In this document: positions 4,128-56,491 of the stretch, piece by piece | How the letters are laid out: each line of letters begins with the position of its first letter | Numbering within the stretch: position 1 is the first letter of the stretch | Source: Escherichia coli | GTDB lineage: Bacteria; Pseudomonadota; Gammaproteobacteria; Enterobacterales; Enterobacteriaceae | Assembly: GCF_013122565.1 (NCBI RefSeq) | Contig: NZ_CP053258.1 | Length of the DNA: 64,000 nt | Direction: 5' to 3' (one strand) | Position numbers and translations under genes: made by a program | The notes under the pieces: model-generated | What the model saw: the letters and a program-made list of their open reading frames with translations, nothing else | Told to the model about the DNA's origin: nothing | The model's database searches: none

Positions 4128-4702
4128 ACCGGGCCTCCGGTTGTATCGCCGCCTTTCAGGACGCCAGTATGCTGATGCGCATCAACCACGATCCCGTTAG
4201 AACTCATCGCTCCGCCGCCCTGGGTAACGCCACCATTGATCACAACTTCGCTGTTAATGCGCGTGCGGTCAGCCTCCAGTACAAACTCACTGGTTTTCAG
4301 GGTGATATTGTCAGCGGCCTCAATGACCATGGATTTGATGCCCCTGACATACCAGCGCCCGGTGGCGGGTTCGTATTCAAACCAGCCACCGTCTGGGTAC
4401 TCAACCACGTTGCCGTCCTCAGAGTCTGAAGGTGGTGGAAACTGATTTGAGTAGACAGCAGGCAGGGCAAACGCGGTTTCCAGATTGCCACCCAGGCTGA
4501 ACAGCACAACCTGCTCGCCCACAGACGGTTTCCACCAGGTGCGCGATTTGCCCGCGCGCAGTGTCAGCCAGTTAATCCAGTTGGTTTCGAGGTCGCCCGT
4601 TTTCACCCGACACAGCCAGTTTTCCCGGTCCACTTCGGTGACTACACCTGTGCGAATCAGATTGGTGATAAGGCGCATGATTTCGGTTAGTTGTGCATTC
4701 AT
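4124..4702 (-). CDS. Baseplate spike/assembly protein (P2 gpV-like)
   Basis: 192 aa; MNAQLTEIMRLITNLIRTGVV... aligns with P2 V N-terminus. Confidence 0.85.
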   Translation of the reverse strand: MNAQLTEIMRLITNLIRTGVVTEVDRENWLCRVKTGDLETNWINWLTLRAGKSRTWWKPSVGEQVVLFSLGGNLETAFALPAVYSNQFPPPSDSEDGNVVEYPDGGWFEYEPATGRWYVRGIKSMVIEAADNITLKTSEFVLEADRTRINSEVVINGGVTQGGGAMSSNGIVVDAHQHTGVLKGGDTTGGPV

Positions 4703-26542: not shown

Positions 26543-26570
26543 AACCCATTTAGATAAGTGGGTTTTTTGT
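26543..26570 (+). terminator. Hairpin plus T-tract in the prophage-host junction (terminator; att region candidate)
   Basis: aaccca-tttagataag-tgggtt followed by TTTTTT; preceded by imperfect direct repeats ttattgttttt. Confidence 0.5.
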
Positions 26571-37835: not shown

Positions 37836-38019
37836 TTAATCTAAAGGCAGATCTAACAAGGATATTGTTCTTCGATCTGCCTCTACTACCCTTCCCGATG
37901 TCCTACCCTTACGCACAAAATCCCCTGACGCATAAATCGAGAAAAATGAATCGTACTCGAGGCAACTCTCACTTTTTCACACCAAATTAAAGTTTTGATC
38001 GCAATTACTTGAAATAAGC

Positions 38020-38045
38020 GTAATGGTTACTATAGTAAACATTAC
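38020..38045. promoter_or_regulatory. Imperfect palindrome overlapping a -10-like TATAGT upstream of the toxin-antitoxin pair (autoregulatory operator candidate)
   Basis: gtaatggttactatagtaaacattac. Confidence 0.4.
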
Positions 38046-38060
38046 CACAAGGATGGATGT

Positions 38061-38447
38061 ATGGGTGTGTATAAGGCAAGGCGATTCAGCCAAAGCACGA
38101 AAAAACTTGGTATTCACGATAAAGTTCTCATGGCTGCCGCTGAAGAAGTGATGCAAGGCATATGGGAGGCTGATTTAGGTAGCGGTGTCATCAAAAAACG
38201 GTTACCCCTCCAACAAGGAAAGAGTGGTGGAGCCAGAACAATTATCTTTTTTAAATCAGCAAATCATGTGTTTTTTTATGATGGTTGGTCCAAGAGTGGT
38301 CTAAGCAGTAAAGGAACCAAAGAAATCGAAGATGATGAACTGGCAGCCTACAAAAAAATGGCAAATGCATTTCTGGCCTTTAGCAATAAGCAAATAGAGG
38401 ATTTGATCGAAACTGGCTTCTTGATTGAGGTGAAAAATGAGCGATAA
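38061..38447 (+). CDS. Type II toxin, RelE/ParE superfamily (HigB-2-like), toxin-first arrangement
   Basis: 128 aa; ...GKSGGARTIIFFKSANHVFFYDGWSKS... pattern typical of this toxin family. Confidence 0.65.
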   Translation: MGVYKARRFSQSTKKLGIHDKVLMAAAEEVMQGIWEADLGSGVIKKRLPLQQGKSGGARTIIFFKSANHVFFYDGWSKSGLSSKGTKEIEDDELAAYKKMANAFLAFSNKQIEDLIETGFLIEVKNER

Positions 38448-38766
38448 ATTACAAATGATGCTGGAAGATGCAAAGGAACTGAATGCATTGGGCCTGATGT
38501 CTGATAGTGAGGTTGATGCCATTGCCGTCATGGTCAAAGCCCGTGAAGTCAGCGCCCGTATAGCCAAAGTCAAATCAATGACGGGTGAAGAGATCAAAGC
38601 CATCCGCACCCGATACGGCATGTCACAATCCGTGCTGGCACATACAATGGGAATGTCAAAAGAAAGTGTCTCGAAATGGGAACGTAATGAAATAAAACCG
38701 AGCGGCCCGGCACTACGTATTTTGAATACATTGGCAATAAAAGGGCCGGAAGTTTTTGCAAAGTAA
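38437..38766 (+). CDS. HTH (Xre/NadS-like) antitoxin
   Basis: 109 aa; C-terminal HTH ...YGMSQSVLAHTMGMSKESVSKWERNE...; 11-bp overlap with toxin gene. Confidence 0.65.
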   Translation: MSDKLQMMLEDAKELNALGLMSDSEVDAIAVMVKAREVSARIAKVKSMTGEEIKAIRTRYGMSQSVLAHTMGMSKESVSKWERNEIKPSGPALRILNTLAIKGPEVFAK

Positions 38767-38835
38767 AATGTTTGCAAATGATTTACCACATTCATTAGTA
38801 CCCCTTGATTCAGGGGTACTAACACTATTCTAATT

Positions 38836-40164
38836 CTACTGCCAGCTAATCTGCGCCCTGCCGTTTTTCTTACTCTTATACAGCCGCTCATCTGCCAGCA
38901 TTTTCAAGCGTTCGACGGTAGTACATTCATTTGAATGCGCTATACCGATACTGGTGCTTAAATTAATGCTTCCCACCTGGAAATGAACAATTTCTTTTAG
39001 AATCGATAGCAACTCTTCCAGCGTTCCACCCGTATAAATCACCGCAAATTCGTCACCGCCGAAGCGGTAGACTTTACCTTTATCTACGGGGATCTGTGAT
39101 TTAAGGATTTTCACCACTTTCATCAACACTTCATCGCCCAGCAAATGACCGAAGGTGTCGTTAATGTTTTTGAATTTATCGACGTCAAACAGGCACAAAT
39201 ATCCGCCTTTTTCCGGCAGGGCTTTTAAATCTTCGTCAAAGGATTTTCTGCCCATTGCTTTGGTCAGGTCGTCCAGGAACGCTGAGTTATACAGACTGTA
39301 GAGTTTTTTGACATCGGCAGCCGAAAAGAAAAGCCCGCCATCCAGTACACGTTCAAAATGGTTATTAATGATGGCTTCTTTCTCCACAATACCACGATTA
39401 ATCACTCTGCGTACCATATAGAGGCAACTGGTACCCGATATCACTGCCACCAATGCGGCAAAGAAAATAATCAATGTACAGACCCGCAAATAAACATCTT
39501 TTTTATACGCAAATACGTACAATCCTGTCGGCAAATAGGCGAAGTGCTCCATCGCTTCCGAAACGGTGAAGATGGCGTTTTTAGCATTATATTCATCACC
39601 GGTCACCGGTTTACCGTTCTTAAACAGAGAGAACATCAGGTTTTCGCTATCCATCGCCAGCGATTTTGACAGTAAAGAAAAACGCTCCAGACCAAGCAAA
39701 AATATCAGACTACGATTGTGAGTTACCGGATAGAGGTAATAGACGAAGGTTTTACCGTCAAAAGAGATAAACCCTGTATTTTTGACATGTCGATACTTCA
39801 CAACCTGCATAATATCTGCACAATAATTTTTCTCGAACTCCTTTACCTGAATACATTCGTCACTGGAAATCAGATAAGGACCGACATCGTACAAATAAGA
39901 GGGTGAAACCGAGTCGGCGTAAGCTGTGCGTAAGCCAACCAACAGCTGTTCCTCCGTGGGATTTAGCGTGTTGATAAGATCAATTGCCACGCTACGCCGA
40001 TATTCAGCAATATTTGCCACCGCAAAAGCAGTATCAATAACGGACTGTTTCAGGCTATACACCCGTTCCTTTACCATTTGAGTGTAGATCCCGCAGGCAA
40101 CTGCTGAAATCATGATAAAAATCAGCAGACTGACTGTAAGTACGAACTTATTGATTCTGGACAT
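38836..40164 (-). CDS. dgcI: Diguanylate cyclase DgcI (YliF)
   Basis: 442 aa; GGDEF motif in ...[12 protein letters not shown]... Confidence 0.9.
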
Positions 40165-42697: not shown

Positions 42698-43609
42698 CTA
42701 TCCTTTAATTTTCGGATCCAGCGCATCGCGTAAACCATCGCCCAACAAATTGAACGCCAGTACAGTCAGAAAAATAGCCAGGGCCGGAAAAACAGCGACA
42801 TGCGGCGCGATAACCATATCCGCTCGAGCCTCATTGAGCATTGCTCCCCACTCTGGTGTCGGCGGCTGCGCACCGAGGCCGAGAAATGACAGGCTGGCGG
42901 CAGAGATAATCGAGGTACCAATCCGCATGGTGAAAAACACCACGATAGAAGAGACGGTCCCAGGCAGGATATGACGCAACAAAATGGTCATATCGCTGGC
43001 ACCAATACTGCGTGCTGACTCAATAAAGGTTTGCTGTTTCAACACCAGCGTGTTGCCGCGCACCAGGCGGGCAAACGCGGGGATGGAAAAAATGGCGACT
43101 GCAATAATCACGTTAGCAATGCCGCTTCCCAACACCGCAACAACAGCGATCGCCAGTAAAATACCCGGGAAGGCAAACAGCACATCGCAAATGCGCATGA
43201 TCAGCCGATCCCACCAGCCTTCATAATATCCAGCCAGCAAACCCAGCAACGTCCCTATCGCCGCACCGATAAACACGGCAAACACGCCCGCCGCCAGCGA
43301 GATTTGCGCACCAACCAGGACACGGCTGAAAATGTCACGCCCCAGTGAATCGACGCCAAACCAGTGCTGCAAAGAAGGTCCGTTATTCAGATTGTCATAA
43401 TCAAAATAATTTTCGGCGTCATAGGGAGCGATCCAGCGTGCAAAAATGGCCACCACAATCAATAAAATAACGAATAATGCGGCGGTCATCGCCATATGCT
43501 GACGGCGAAATCGTCGCCAGAATTCATGCCACGGTGTACGTACCTGGTCAGGTTTGACCAGTGGCATGGCGTTTAACACCGCCTGACGTCGCCAGTTAAA
43601 TAGTCGCAT
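42698..43609 (-). CDS. gsiD: Glutathione ABC transporter permease GsiD
   Basis: 303 aa permease; synteny gsiABCD. Confidence 0.9.
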
Positions 43610-43611
43610 CC

Positions 43612-44532
43612 TTACTTGTACCTGATAGCCGGGTTAATGGCGGCGTAAAGCACATCCACCACTAAGTTGATAAGAATAAATTCCAGCGAGAAAAGCAGAA
43701 TTTCCGCCTGAATCACCGGGTAATCGCGCATTTCTACGGAGTCAACGAGTAAGCGTCCAAGTCCGGGCCAGTTGAAAACTTTCTCCACCACGATGGAACC
43801 ACCGAGCAAAAAGCCAAACTGTAAGCCCATCATGGTCACTACCGGGATCATCGCGTTGCGTAGCCCGTGTTTGAGGACAACCCAGGTTTCGCTCACCCCT
43901 TTCGCCCTCGCGGTACGCATATAATCTTCGCTTAAAACGTCGACAAACGACGCGCGGGTAAAGCGCGCCATCACGGCGGCCACTGCCGCGCCGAGCGTCA
44001 GGGAGGGTAAAATGTAGTGCTGCCAACTGTCTGCTCCCACGGTCGGCAGCCAGCCCAGTTCAACAGAGAATACCTGAATTAAAAGCATCCCCAGAGCAAA
44101 TGCCGGAAACGAGATCCCCGACACCGCAATGGTCATACTCAATCGATCCGGCCAACGGTTACGCCAGACGGCGGCGATAATTCCCGCCGCCATACCAAAT
44201 ATCACCGCCCAGACCATACTGGTTATGGTCAGCCACAGCGTTGGCATAAAGCGGCTGGCAATCTCATCGGCAACCGGACGACGCGACACCATCGACAGGC
44301 CAAAATCCCCCTGCACAGCATTGCTGATATAGTGCCAGAACTGGTGATACAGCGGCTGATCCAACCCCAGCTGCTGACGCACCAGTTCTATAACCTGCGC
44401 ATCAGCTTCGGGCCCGGCAATCAATCGCGCCGGATCGCCGGGCAGCATATGGACAAATAAAAACACCAGCACCGAGACGATAAACAGCGTCGGAATCAAC
44501 CCCAGCAAGCGTTTGATAACGTAATTAAGCAT
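43612..44532 (-). CDS. gsiC: Glutathione ABC transporter permease GsiC
   Basis: 306 aa permease. Confidence 0.9.
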
Positions 44533-44549: not shown

Positions 44550-46088
44550 TTATTGCAAATCCGCGTCTTCAAAGCTGAAGCCGGTGTCTGGCATGATCCA
44601 AAAACCGGTCAGGTTTTTACTGTGTGCCGACACCAGTTTTTCTACCACCAGCGGGATCCATGGCGATTCTTGCCAGATGATATCCTGCGCCGCCTTATAT
44701 AAGCGGGTCTTTTCCGCCGGATCATTAGTTTTCAGTGCCTGAGACAGGAAGTCATCCACCTGTTTATTGCTGTAAAACGCGGTATTAAACAGCGTCGGTG
44801 GCCAGTTTTGCGAGGCAAACAGCGGCGATAGTGCCCAGTCAGCTTCGCCGGTTGAAGCCGACCAGCCAGTGTAGAACATCCGCACGCCGCTCTCTTTTTG
44901 CCCTTTACCTTCAACTTCTGCCGCCCGCTGTCCGGCATCCATCGCAGTCACCTGGGCTTTAATCCCGACCTGCGCTAACTGCTGCTGGGTAAATTGCAGC
45001 ACTTTCTGCGCGGTGCTGTGGTTATGTGACGACCACAGCGTGGTACTGAAACCGTTGGGATATCCCGCCTCTTTCAGTAATTCGCGCGCTTTCACTGGAT
45101 CGTAAGGCCACGGTTTATAACTTTGCGCGTAGGCGATACTCGGCGGTACCACACCAGTAGCTGGCGTTGCATAGCCCGCGAAGGCCACTTTCACCAGCGC
45201 CGGGCGGTTAATGGCGTAATTCAGCGCCTCACGGACCTTCGGGTTATCGAACGGCTTTTGCGTCACGTTCATACTGATATAACGCTGCATAATTGACGGA
45301 CTGGCCATCAACTCTATATTTTTGTTTTTTTCCAGCAGTGCGGCCTGCTCGTAAGGAATGGGGAAAGCAAACTGCGCTTCACCGGTTTGCAGCATTGCCG
45401 CGCGGGTGTTGTTATCCGCCACCGGACGCCAGGTTATGCTGTCCAGTTTGGGCAATCCTGGCTGCCAGTAACCCGCGAATTTTTTCACCTTCACAAAATC
45501 GGTCTGATTCCAGGTATCCAGTTCATACGGTCCGGTTCCCACCGGATGAAAACCAATCTCCTTGCCATATTTTTCCAGCGCTGCCGGTGAAATCATCGCG
45601 GTCGCCGGATGGGCAAGAATATTAATAAACGCTGAGAACGGCTGTTTGAGGGTAATCTTTACCGTTGTCGGATCGATCGCTTCCGTTTTGGCAATATTCT
45701 TATACAGGTTGTAGCGTTTAAGATGATTCGCCGGATCGCTGGCCCGGTCCAGATTCGCTTTCACCGCCGCTGCGTTGAAATCGGTGCCATCCTGGAATTT
45801 AATGCCTTCCCGCAATTTCACGGTGTATGTAAGGCCGTCATCGGAAACGGTATAACTCTCCGCCAGCACGTTTTTCAGTTTCATCTCTTTATCCAGACCA
45901 AACAGCCCCTGGTAAAACGATTTCGCTACGGCCTGAGATAACGTGTCATTTGCGTCATACGGATCGAGCGTGGTGAAGTTCGATCCTACCGCTACCACCA
46001 CATCTTTGGCAGCGAATGCACAAGATGCCATCAACGCTGTCGCAATGCCCAGCGCCACTAACCCACTACGGTGTACAGCTCTTGCCAT
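44550..46088 (-). CDS. gsiB: Glutathione-binding periplasmic protein GsiB
   Basis: Trimmed to [26 protein letters not shown]... (512 aa). Confidence 0.9.
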
Positions 46089-46107: not shown

Positions 46108-47979
46108 TTATCTACGCATGAATGCGTATTCTGATTGTGGTTGTGCGACGTAATGCCCCGGCCCGACGCATTGCAACGAGACGGCTGCCACCTCTTCGCC
46201 ACGCAGATGAATATTGCTGGGAAGATCGTCCGACAGCAGTACACGCTGCGGTCGTTGTCGGGACGGTTCAGCGACCGGAACTGCCGCCAGTAATTTACGC
46301 GTATAAGGATGCTGCGGGTTTTCGAAGACCGCGCGCCGTGGACCAATTTCAACAATTTGCCCGAGATACATCACCGCCACACGATGACTAATCCGCTCTA
46401 CCACAGCCATATCGTGGGAGATAAACAGATACGCAATGCCGAAATCACGCTGGAGATCGAGCAACAAGTTGATAATCTGCCCGCGAATAGAAACATCCAG
46501 CGCCGAAACGGCTTCGTCGGCAATGATCACTTTTGGATTCAATGCCAACGCGCGAGCAATGCAGATGCGCTGGCGCTGACCGCCGGAAAACTCATGCGGG
46601 TAACGCCAGGCATGTTCAGGTAACAGGCCCACGCGCTCCAGCAACCACGCAACGCGTGCAGCCGCGTCTTTACCTGGCAATAAACCGTGTACACGCAGCG
46701 GTTCGATAATCGAATCACCGATGGTCTGACGTGGGTCCAGCGAAGCGTAAGGGTCCTGAAAAATAAACTGAATATCCCGGCGCAATGCCTGAAGTTTGCC
46801 GGGTGACAAGGTATCGATTCGCTGACCGTTAAAGATAATTTCGCCGCCCTGCGATTCGACCAGGCGCAGCAACGCCCGCCCGGTAGTGGATTTACCGCTG
46901 CCAGACTCGCCCACCAGCGATAGCGTTTCGCCAGGCCAGAGATCAAAACTGACTTTCTCAACGGCATGCACTTCCCGCGTTACGCGATTCAACAAACCGC
47001 TGCGCAAAGAGAAACGGGTGACCAGATTACGCACCCGTAAAACAGGTTCGCCATCCACCACCGTTTTCTGCTCGATGGGGGGTCCCTGTTTCGCTGGATG
47101 TTCAAGCGATATCAACGGGAAACGTCGGGGATAATCTAACCCTTTCATCGCACCAAGTTGCGGAACAGCAGCTAACAGCGCACGGGTGTGAGGATGTTGC
47201 GGCGCATGAAAAATCTGTTCGACGGTACCCGTTTCCACCGCCTCGCCCTGATACATCACCAGTACCCGATCGGCAATCTCTGCCACCACGCCCATATCGT
47301 GCGTGATAAAGATAACGCCCATCGACATCTCTTTTTGCAATACTTTGATTAATTGCAGGATCTGCGCCTGAATAGTGACATCCAGCGCGGTGGTTGGCTC
47401 ATCGGCAATCAGCACCGCCGGGCGGCATGACAGCGCCATCGCAATCATCACTCGCTGGCGCATCCCGCCAGAGAGTTGATGCGGATAACGTGAAAGGATG
47501 GTTTGTGCCTCCGGAATGCGTACCTGATCCAGCATCCGCTTCGCCTCGACCATCGCTTCTTCACGACTGGCGTTTTGATGCAGACGAATTGATTCGGCAA
47601 TCTGTTCACCCACAGTAAATACCGGGTTCAGCGATGTCATCGGCTCCTGAAATATCATCGCCATATCCGCACCGCGCACATGGCGCATTTGTGCAGCGCT
47701 CTGCTCGCTAAGTTCAATCACTTCGCGACTGCGCCGCCGCAACAGCATTTGATCGCACTGCACTAAACCGCCCGCCTGTTCCAACAGGCGCATCAATGCC
47801 AGCGCAGTCACTGACTTACCGGAGCCGGATTCGCCAACAATTGCCAGCGTCTCACCGCGTTGCAGGCTAAAAGAGAGATTGCGGACCGCAGCTATTTTCT
47901 GCTGGTCCTGCATAAAGGCAATATTCAGATTTTCAACCGCCAGCACATCACCGGCATCAAGTTCATCACTGTGTGGCAA
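46108..47979 (-). CDS. gsiA: Glutathione ABC transporter ATPase GsiA (two ABC domains); apparent TTG start
   Basis: 623 aa if initiated at TTG 47977-47979 preceding [11 protein letters not shown]...; duplicated Walker A GESGSGKS. Confidence 0.85.
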
Positions 47980-48931
47980 CGGTGTCCCCTTTTTCACGGT
48001 AGATACCGGTGGTTGGCGTATCGCCTGCGTAGCCCCAGGCGCGATACATTCCTTCGGTGTTAAACGGTAGCGCGACATTCCCTTCATGGTCGATAGCGAT
48101 TAAGCCACCGTTACCGCCAAGCGCAGGGAGTTTTTCCATTACTACCCGCTCGCAGGCTTCCGCGAGACTTAATCCGCCGTAATCCATTAACGCGGCGATG
48201 TCATATGCCGCCAGCGAGCGGATGAAGACTTCGCCCGTGCCGGTACAAGAAACCGCCACACTGGCATTATTGGCGTAGCATCCGGCACCCACTAAGGGGC
48301 TATCGCCAACTCGTCCGGGTAATTTATTGGTCATTCCGCCCGTGGACGTGGCTGCCGCCAGATTGCCGTCTAAATCCAACGCCACGGCCCCCACGGTGCC
48401 CATTTTCTGTTTTTCATCCAGTGGCGCACCGCTATGGTCGAGGACTGTTGCCCCTTCCTCGCGCGCTGCCAGTAGTTGTTCATAACGCAAAGGCGTGGAG
48501 AAAATCTCCGGTGAGACGCGCTCCATGCCATGAGCAAACGCAAAATTTTCTGCCCCTTCGCCAATCATCATCACGTGCGCGCTTTGCTCCATCACCAGCC
48601 GGGCGGCAAGAACCGGATTACGCAGATGACTAACGCCCGCCACCGCACCGGCTTTCAGGGTGTTACCATCCATCACACAGGCGTCCAGTTCATGGGTTTC
48701 ATCACGCGTAAAGACAGCGCCAATTCCGGCGTTAAACAGTGGACACTCTTCCAGCAGACGCACCGCTTCCGTCACCACATCCAGTGCACTTTCGCCCGCT
48801 TCCAGCATTTTCTGCCCGGTTTCAACAATGGCAGACAATGCCTCGATGTAGCGTAATTCCTGTTGCAGACTCATCTGTGCGCGGCTAATTGCACCTGCGC
48901 CGCCATGAATTGCAATGACTGCTTTGCCCAT
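47966..48931 (-). CDS. iaaA: Isoaspartyl peptidase / L-asparaginase IaaA
   Basis: 321 aa; [19 protein letters not shown]... Confidence 0.95.
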
Positions 48932-49134
48932 AGTATTCGTCCATTAAGGGTGGCTCGCCACTTTTGTTATAAATATCAGAATTTTTATTAATTACTCATT
49001 CAATTTTTGAATATAGAAAGATGGATATGGCATGTAAAGGCAGGAGCCAGCGCTACGCCCGAGGTGGAATACAGTCCGTGGCATTTTTCTGACATAATAG
49101 GCAAATTCGATTTTCCCTCCGCAGGAGTGTTTTC

Positions 49135-55476: not shown

Positions 55477-56292
55477 ATGAGCGTAAAAGTTATCGTCACA
55501 GACATGGACGGTACTTTTCTGAGCGACGCCAAAACGTACAACAATGAGCGTTTTATGGTGCAATATCAGGAACTTAAAAAGCGCGGCATTGAGTTCGTTG
55601 TCGCCAGCGGTAATCAGTATTACCAGCTTATTTCGTTCTTTCCTGAGCTAAAGGATGAGATCTCTTTTGTCGCGGAAAACGGCGCACTGGTTTACGAAAA
55701 TGGCATGCAGTTGTTCCACGGCGAATTAACCCGACATGAATCGCGGATTGTTATTGGCGAGTTGCTGAAAGACAAGCAACTCAATTTTGTCGCCTGCGGT
55801 TTGCAAAGCGCGTATGTCAGCGAAAATGCCCCCGAAGCATTCGTCGCACTGATGGCAAAACACTACCATCGCCTGAAACCTGTAAAAGATTATCAGGAGA
55901 TTGACGACGTACTGTTCAAGTTTTCGCTCAACCTGCCGGATGAACAAATCCCGTTAGTGATCGACAAACTGCACGTAGCGCTCGATGGCATTATGAAACC
56001 CGTCACCAGTGGTTTTGGCTTTATCGACCTGATTATTCCCGGTCTACATAAAGCGAATGGTATTACGCGGTTGCTGAAACGCTGGGATCTGTCACCGCAA
56101 AATGTGGTAGCGGTTGGCGACAGCGGTAACGATGCGGAGATGCTGAAAATGGCGCGTTATTCCTTTGCGATGGGCAATGCTGCGGAAAACATTAAACAAA
56201 TCGCCCGTTACGCTACCGATGATAATAATCATGAAGGCGCGCTGAATGTGATTCAGGCGGTGCTGGATAATAAAGCGCCGTTTACTCTTTAA
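55477..56292 (+). CDS. ybiV: HAD-family sugar phosphatase YbiV (SupH)
   Basis: 271 aa; [15 protein letters not shown] (DxDGT). Confidence 0.9.
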
Positions 56293-56333
56293 TAATTGCC
56301 GATTCATTTTATTGAGAAAGTGCGCGTCGTCAT

Positions 56334-56431
56334 GCCGGATGCGGCGTGACCGCCTTATCCAGCCTACAAAATCATGCAAATTCAACATATTGCGATACGC
56401 TGCCAGGTCTGATAAGCGTAGCGCATCAGGC
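56334..56431. repeat. REP/BIME element (two REP units in opposite orientation) plus adjacent hairpin at 56456-56482
   Basis: gccggatgcggcgtgaccgccttatccagcctac and ggtctgataagcgtagcgcatcaggc match the E. coli REP consensus. Confidence 0.8.
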
Positions 56432-56491
56432 AATTTTGCATTTGTCATCAGTCTCAGTAGCCCTGACATTATCAGGGCTACTGGTAATAAC

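Follow-up and report, generated by a model that had tools for sequence, protein, structure and literature searches.

The TTG start of gsiA and its 14-nt overlap with iaaA in Escherichia coli, an already annotated junction that looks derived by stop codon loss

The coupled ATGA and TGATG gene pairs described by Huber et al. (2019, 2023) are same-strand operon neighbours in which the start codon and Shine-Dalgarno sequence of the downstream gene lie inside the upstream coding sequence. These pairs overlap by 4 or 1 nt. Coupling is most efficient at spacings of -4 to +3 nt and falls strongly as the overlap grows from -4 to -25 nt (reporter studies covered in a 2025 review, PMC12548453). Huber et al. 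(2023) took only spacings of -8 to +10 nt as predictive of coupling and judged independent initiation more likely for the +10/11 class (PMC10666635). Loss of the upstream stop codon is a known route to gene overlaps (Fukuda, Nakayama and Tomita 2003, as cited in PMC12548453). In E. coli K-12 MG1655 (NC_000913.3), iaaA (b0828) is annotated at 866568-867533 and gsiA (b0829, NP_415350.2) at 867520-869391, and the literature groups iaaA with gsiABCD as one locus, and places it in a predicted CysB regulon.

We analyzed the iaaA/gsiA junction within a stretch of 64,000 nucleotides of an E. coli genome (assembly GCF_013122565.1, contig NZ_CP053258.1), referred to here as the window. Both genes lie on the minus strand of the window (Table 1). 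The pair is similar to the coupled ATGA/TGATG pairs in that the genes are same-strand operon neighbours and the downstream start and Shine-Dalgarno sequence are inside the upstream coding sequence, but it differs from them in that its overlap is 14 nt, which is outside the -8 to +10 nt range. We found that the annotated K-12 start is the same TTG, giving the same 623-aa product, the same iaaA stop and the same 14-nt overlap. While the window strain and K-12 MG1655 are approximately 98% identical and GsiA carries a few substitutions (e.g., D11 for N11), the junction is unchanged. Furthermore, the RefSeq annotation of other E. coli genomes places the start and the overlap as in the window, and at least 5131 of 5422 complete E. 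coli genomes carry a 100% match to the 54-nt junction, a stretch that includes the Shine-Dalgarno sequence along with the TTG and the iaaA stop. Since the feature is identical to the standard curated K-12 annotation, the TTG start and the 14-nt overlap are ordinary and already known.

The window is collinear with K-12 850.5-888.0 kb at approximately 98-99% identity, without ybiU. It also carries an insert of approximately 1 kb, encoding a RelE-family toxin and a helix-turn-helix antitoxin, between dgcI and rimO, and a P2-like prophage from position 26558 downward, inserted beside rybB.

Table 1. Positions of the iaaA/gsiA junction and of neighbouring features, numbered from the first letter of the window.
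Feature	Position	Strand	Description or basis
gsiA initiation codon TTG	47977-47979	-	Followed by PHSDELD; matches K-12 annotation
gsiA CDS	46108-47979	-	623 aa; fused double ATP-binding subunit of glutathione ABC importer; NF007613 match
gsiA Shine-Dalgarno AAGGGG	47986-47991	-	Inside iaaA codons; 6-nt spacer (ACACCG) to TTG
iaaA CDS	47966-48931	-	321 aa; beta-aspartyl peptidase; NF007589, 707.5 bits, 1-321 of 321
iaaA stop TGA	47966-47968	-	Across gsiA codons 4-5 (aGT GAt); ORF ends ...VATQ*
iaaA/gsiA overlap, 14 nt, TTGCCACACAGTGA	47966-47979	-	Dual-coding; ORF coordinates
iaaA codon AAA (Lys314)	47990-47992	-	iaaA stop TAA here in most relatives
gsiB	44550-46088	-	Next operon gene; ORF and collinearity with K-12
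gsiC	43612-44532	-	ORF and collinearity with K-12
gsiD	42698-43609	-	ORF and collinearity with K-12
Promoter-like site upstream of iaaA, TTTACA-17-TATATT	49010-49038	-	10/12; weak, not significant alone

A preliminary description of this DNA had taken the TTG codon before PHSDELD as the gsiA start, and both the sequence and the identical annotation of K-12 MG1655 bear this out. In the gsiA frame the junction reads GGG ACA CCG TTG CCA CAC AGT GAT GAA CTT GAT, and 623 codons plus a stop are contained between the TTG and position 46108. The same description had stated that no in-frame ATG yields a product of this length, and indeed the ATGs of the gsiA open reading frame at 48087, 48078, and 47913 (Met23) give 659, 656, and 601 aa, respectively. 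GsiA translated from the TTG scored 1370.6 bits against the NCBIfam equivalog NF007613 (curated cut-off of 1077 bits), with protein residues 1-623 corresponding to profile positions 1-623 of 623. The 659-aa open reading frame scored 1369.6 bits and matched only from its residue 37, so the 36 extra residues gain nothing. The duplex between the gsiA Shine-Dalgarno sequence and the 3' end of the 16S rRNA was calculated at -7.8 kcal/mol, the best of four candidate starts in the open reading frame, and its distance of 6 nt from the TTG is within the 5-9 nt expected for a genuine initiation site. In our reading, AAGGGG, within the last iaaA codons, places ribosomes at the TTG, and the first ATP-binding domain of the resulting protein begins approximately 12 residues in. 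In the PDB we found homologues only (DppD, OppD/F, and Rv1281c) and no structure of GsiA, and we used the homologues to place the start of this domain: the alignments of E. coli DppD (8z1v_C) and Mycobacterium tuberculosis Rv1281c (8j5q_D) with GsiA begin at GsiA residue 12-13, which corresponds to residue 4 of these homologues. Overall, we consider it highly likely that gsiA starts at TTG 47979-47977.

Conservation of the start was assessed with 80 gsiA loci, one genome per species and from species other than Salmonella, from which 20 Enterobacteriaceae iaaA-gsiA junctions were aligned. The homologous codon, which sits 11 codons before the conserved VLAVENL strand, is NTG in all 20 aligned junctions. 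Its T and G are invariant and only the first base varies (T, G, or A), which is the signature expected of an initiation codon. The codon is TTG in Escherichia, including E. albertii, three Citrobacter, Superficieibacter, and Pseudocitrobacter; GTG in Lelliottia, Enterobacter, Phytobacter, Siccibacter, and Pluralibacter gergoviae; and ATG in Leclercia, Cedecea, and other Enterobacter. In several genera (Lelliottia, Enterobacter MGH24, Pseudocitrobacter, and Siccibacter) it is the sole candidate start, longer forms being ruled out by an in-frame stop a few codons before it. The Shine-Dalgarno sequences of relatives occupy the same place in the junction alignment and read AAGGAG, TAAGGAG, or TAAGGGGG. 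In comparisons across Escherichia and Citrobacter, the 36 codons before the TTG show 56-81% identity in the gsiA frame, as against 93-98% for the same DNA in the iaaA frame, and GsiA downstream of the TTG shows 75-89%. The low identity in the gsiA frame compared to that in the iaaA frame indicates that the stretch upstream of the TTG evolves as iaaA and not as gsiA.

The 14-nt overlap given in the preliminary description also held, with the TTG opening at 47979 and the iaaA stop closing at 47966, and every Escherichia and Citrobacter locus sampled carries the same 14 nt. The 3' end of iaaA reads ...GTT GCC ACA CAG TGA. Elsewhere in the family the junction is organized differently. In most sampled Enterobacteriaceae, the last residues of IaaA are ...G-I-Y-R-E, its TAA stop is contained in the gsiA Shine-Dalgarno sequence (CGN GAA TAA GGA G), and 9-11 nt separate this TAA from the gsiA start. 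We found GAA-TAA-GG at the junctions of Leclercia, Lelliottia, Enterobacter, Phytobacter, Superficieibacter, Pseudocitrobacter, and Siccibacter, while GAA-AAA-GG occurs only in Escherichia and Citrobacter among the genera sampled. Salmonella LT2 also has TAA. Our single source for the Salmonella junction is a deletion primer given in PMC5485302 (Table 1), which reads ...ACCGGGAATAAGGAGCCGCAG ahead of the cassette priming site. The other Enterobacteriaceae junctions (i.e., Salmonella, Leclercia, Lelliottia, Enterobacter, Phytobacter, and others) share with the window the gene order, the position of the start followed by P-H-S-[DE]-E, and the position of the Shine-Dalgarno sequence. They are unlike the window in having TAA within the Shine-Dalgarno sequence, a gap of 9-11 nt, and often a GTG or ATG start, while the window has AAA, an IaaA that is 8 residues longer, and a spacing of -14 nt.

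Orthologues without the overlap thus carry TAA where the window has the sense codon AAA, and a change from TAA to AAA lets iaaA read 8 codons further (KGDTVATQ) to the TGA inside gsiA codons 4-5. Judged from sequence, the overlap looks derived, a by-product of the lost iaaA stop, with the TAA-to-AAA polarity taken from the outgroup distribution. In the ancestral junction, the gsiA Shine-Dalgarno sequence would have contained the iaaA TAA (GAA-TAA-GGAG), with 9-11 nt between this stop and the gsiA start. This is the same in kind as the stop-loss overlaps of Fukuda et al. (2003), and the single-base difference between TAA and AAA explains the 3' extension of iaaA. Given that Salmonella has TAA, a history of a single event is uncertain and there may have been more than one. 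Since TTG is also found in genera that do not have the overlap (Superficieibacter and Pseudocitrobacter), the TTG and the overlap are independent features.

The preliminary description had further placed iaaA and gsiA in one operon, in agreement with the reference annotation. The overlap leaves no space at the junction for a terminator or a promoter, so co-transcription is almost unavoidable, and iaaA and gsiABCD would probably be transcribed together. A promoter and terminator scan of the minus strand returned nothing at the iaaA/gsiA junction and was not significant either way; two promoter-like sites were found across the region compared to 2.7 expected from shuffled sequences.

Published start-site data bear on how this junction is used. 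INRI-seq profiles start sites in vitro on a synthetic pool that contains every K-12 initiation region from -30 to +150 (PMC9825163). At the gsiA start it recorded 0 CPM in all five replicates with the template present in the pool at 151 CPM, and the starts of gsiB, gsiC, and gsiD were detected (PMC9825163). This shows that the isolated gsiA site initiates poorly in vitro. Approximately 30% of annotated starts are undetected by INRI-seq, and those undetected tend to have stronger predicted structure (PMC9825163). With so many annotated starts missed, the zero for gsiA is weak evidence either way and neither confirms nor refutes the TTG. The Ribo-RET signal at the annotated gsiA start is likewise 0. 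In the part of the TRAINSPOTTER N-terminomics tables available to us, the N-terminus of IaaA is present and that of GsiA is absent, and a Salmonella riboproteogenomics paper and an eLife paper on the anti-Shine-Dalgarno sequence contained nothing on gsiA. Overall, neither a directly determined N-terminus nor a start-site peak for GsiA came out of the published data consulted. The recombinant Salmonella protein, made from the annotated gsiA coding sequence, is an active ATPase of approximately 70 kDa (PMC5485302), which indicates that a protein of that length is functional and does not locate the native start.

Finally, the preliminary description had argued that the overlap implies translational coupling of gsiA to iaaA. 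We find coupling plausible, but it is not implied by a 14-nt overlap: a spacing of -14 nt is beyond the values associated with efficient coupling (about -8 to +10 nt), and gsiA is equipped with a Shine-Dalgarno sequence of its own. A literature search under the current names and the older ones (ybiK-yliABCD) found no experiments on iaaA-gsiA coupling. The predicted local hairpin from -30 to +15 of gsiA has a free energy of -9.7 kcal/mol, the strongest of the five initiation regions of the operon, and within it the Shine-Dalgarno GGGG is base-paired to iaaA codons. In E. coli, a 10-bp helix (CACCGGUAUC/GAUGCCGGUG) is predicted to enclose the gsiA initiation region (MFE z-score of -2.1). The duplex formed by its arms is calculated at -15 to -19 kcal/mol in Escherichia and at -4 to -5 kcal/mol in Citrobacter, where the helix is lost, as it is in other genera. 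Since the helix is confined to Escherichia, there is no conserved coupling structure. We infer that translation of gsiA would be weak on its own, owing to the TTG and the partly paired Shine-Dalgarno sequence, and that it may be helped to some degree by ribosomes ending iaaA, through unfolding of the hairpin and/or a short backward re-initiation after termination. To our knowledge, the Gsi transporter does not include IaaA among its subunits.

The alternative that survives best is that gsiA initiates independently at the TTG via its own Shine-Dalgarno sequence and that the overlap is a neutral by-product with no functional coupling. The good spacing and pairing energy of the Shine-Dalgarno sequence are consistent with this, as are the position of most relatives at +9 to +11 nt, a class judged likelier to initiate independently (Huber et al. 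2023, PMC10666635), the drop in coupling efficiency with larger overlap (PMC12548453), and the lack of conservation of the Escherichia-specific helix. Against it, the isolated initiation region gave zero initiation in vitro despite the presence of its template (PMC9825163), and the predicted local hairpin takes up part of the Shine-Dalgarno sequence. Furthermore, ribosomes finishing iaaA must cross the Shine-Dalgarno sequence and start of gsiA and can hardly do so without some interaction, whether positive or negative. We regard wholly independent initiation as a serious contender that falls somewhat short of an even chance, and the choice between some coupling and independent initiation with a neutral overlap is a roughly even one. 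Taken as a whole, the explanation that we prefer (i.e., a TTG start, a derived overlap, and probable co-transcription with partial help from iaaA) is very probably the best one.

The remaining alternatives concern the position of the start. An in-frame GTG at 47997-47995, 18 nt upstream of the TTG, would give 629 aa and a 32-nt overlap with iaaA. While this codon is an in-frame start-type codon in both E. coli K-12 and the window, its Shine-Dalgarno pairing is weak (-3.0 kcal/mol), E. albertii and a divergent E. coli-like genome have GCG instead, and Citrobacter does not conserve the six residues that this start would add. In Lelliottia, Enterobacter, and Pseudocitrobacter, in-frame stops precede or replace it, lying between the GTG position and the conserved start, and INRI-seq Table S3 (PMC9825163) calls no alternative gsiA start. 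We therefore consider initiation at the GTG very improbable. An in-frame ATG start, either at 48087 or 48078 or internally at Met23 (47913-47911), is even harder to credit, although ATG is the commonest start codon and a mechanical open reading frame list begins at 48087: the upstream ATGs have no Shine-Dalgarno pairing (0.2 and -1.5 kcal/mol, respectively), the first is ACG in E. albertii and the second is gone in several loci, their 36 extra residues add nothing to the GsiA profile score and evolve as iaaA-synonymous noise, and Met23 is Glu in all three Citrobacter loci (AFEQEQ) and, given the homologue alignment from residue 12-13, would delete the first strand of the ATP-binding domain, a loss that, from the general ABC ATPase fold, would be expected to damage function.

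Given that the TTG start is already annotated, this analysis matters little beyond annotation hygiene. A mechanical choice of the ATG at 48087 (659 aa) would be incorrect, and the reference TTG is well supported by comparison. What we add is small: an origin of the overlap in stop codon loss, and the observation that the start-site datasets consulted contain no direct experimental confirmation of the TTG. Cloning of gsiA or deletion of iaaA should take into account that iaaA contains the ribosome-binding site and the first five codons of gsiA. Finally, we raise a proposal that we hold tentatively and consider rather unlikely: that the stop loss in Escherichia and Citrobacter, by turning a gap of +10 nt into an overlap of -14 nt, left the weak gsiA TTG unable to initiate alone, in line with its silence in vitro and the pairing of its Shine-Dalgarno sequence with iaaA codons, and gated by ribosomes finishing iaaA, either positively by unfolding or back-scanning or negatively by occlusion. 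If such gating were true, the dosage of GsiA relative to IaaA and GsiBCD would have been rewired specifically in this lineage.

The E. coli from which the window derives is of a somewhat divergent lineage, since the closest complete E. coli genome shares only approximately 98.2% identity with the window over 24 kb. We found that the QHP-Y-T motif of the window GsiA, which follows the first ATP-binding domain, carries a histidine and reads QHPHTRALL, while the motif is otherwise conserved. The segments reading RFSLRSG and KQGPP in the window protein also differ from K-12 GsiA, which has a proline and an alanine there, respectively.

The features of the window that were compared with K-12 (MG1655, NC_000913.3) are listed below. 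Collinearity with K-12 ends at K-12 position 887988, next to the rybB small RNA gene, and one end of the window is a P2-like prophage. Over window positions 1-25000, Klebsiella phage KP12 (OM835953) is 95.7% identical across 80% of the sequence and Escherichia phage vB_EcoM-813R9 is 96.2% identical across 79%. The insert between dgcI and rimO contains two small genes which overlap by 11 nt and probably form a type II toxin-antitoxin pair. ybiU is missing from the window, and the second K-12 match of the segment adjoining the gap, located near artJ, suggests that a REP-type repeat lies at the edge of the deletion.

Window features compared with K-12
Feature	Window position	Strand	Remark
P2-like prophage	1-26558		K-12 counterpart absent
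~1-kb insert, dgcI/rimO interval	37841-38836		~40 nt in K-12
RelE-family gene	38061-38447	+	Pfam RelE PF06296 match, E 7e-33
Helix-turn-helix (HTH_3) protein gene	38437-38766	+	weak MqsA-antitoxin match
gsiA	46111-47979	-	
ybiU gap	56271-56456		ybiU (K-12 857735-859234) replaced by ~42 nt; range also takes in the adjoining segment
Segment adjoining ybiU gap	56313-56456		144 nt; also 86% match to K-12 899674-899818

Among the gsiA loci from other genomes, that of one E. coli assembly (L003, NZ_CM174221.1) is in two pieces, of which one encodes an ABC protein of 510 aa and the other is a pseudogene fragment. Since at least 70 consecutive A occur at locus positions 4318-4352, upstream of the latter piece, the split probably reflects either an artefact of the assembly or an insertion.

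The adjacency of iaaA and gsiA is conserved in the two Budvicia loci (L034, L035) and in Burkholderiales and other non-enteric loci (L040-L083), including Achromobacter, Bordetella, Paraburkholderia, Variovorax, and Cupriavidus. At these loci the two genes are separated by 30-110 nt and the GsiA N-termini are different. Since the adjacency extends far beyond Enterobacteriaceae, the association of the isoaspartyl peptidase with the glutathione transporter is old.
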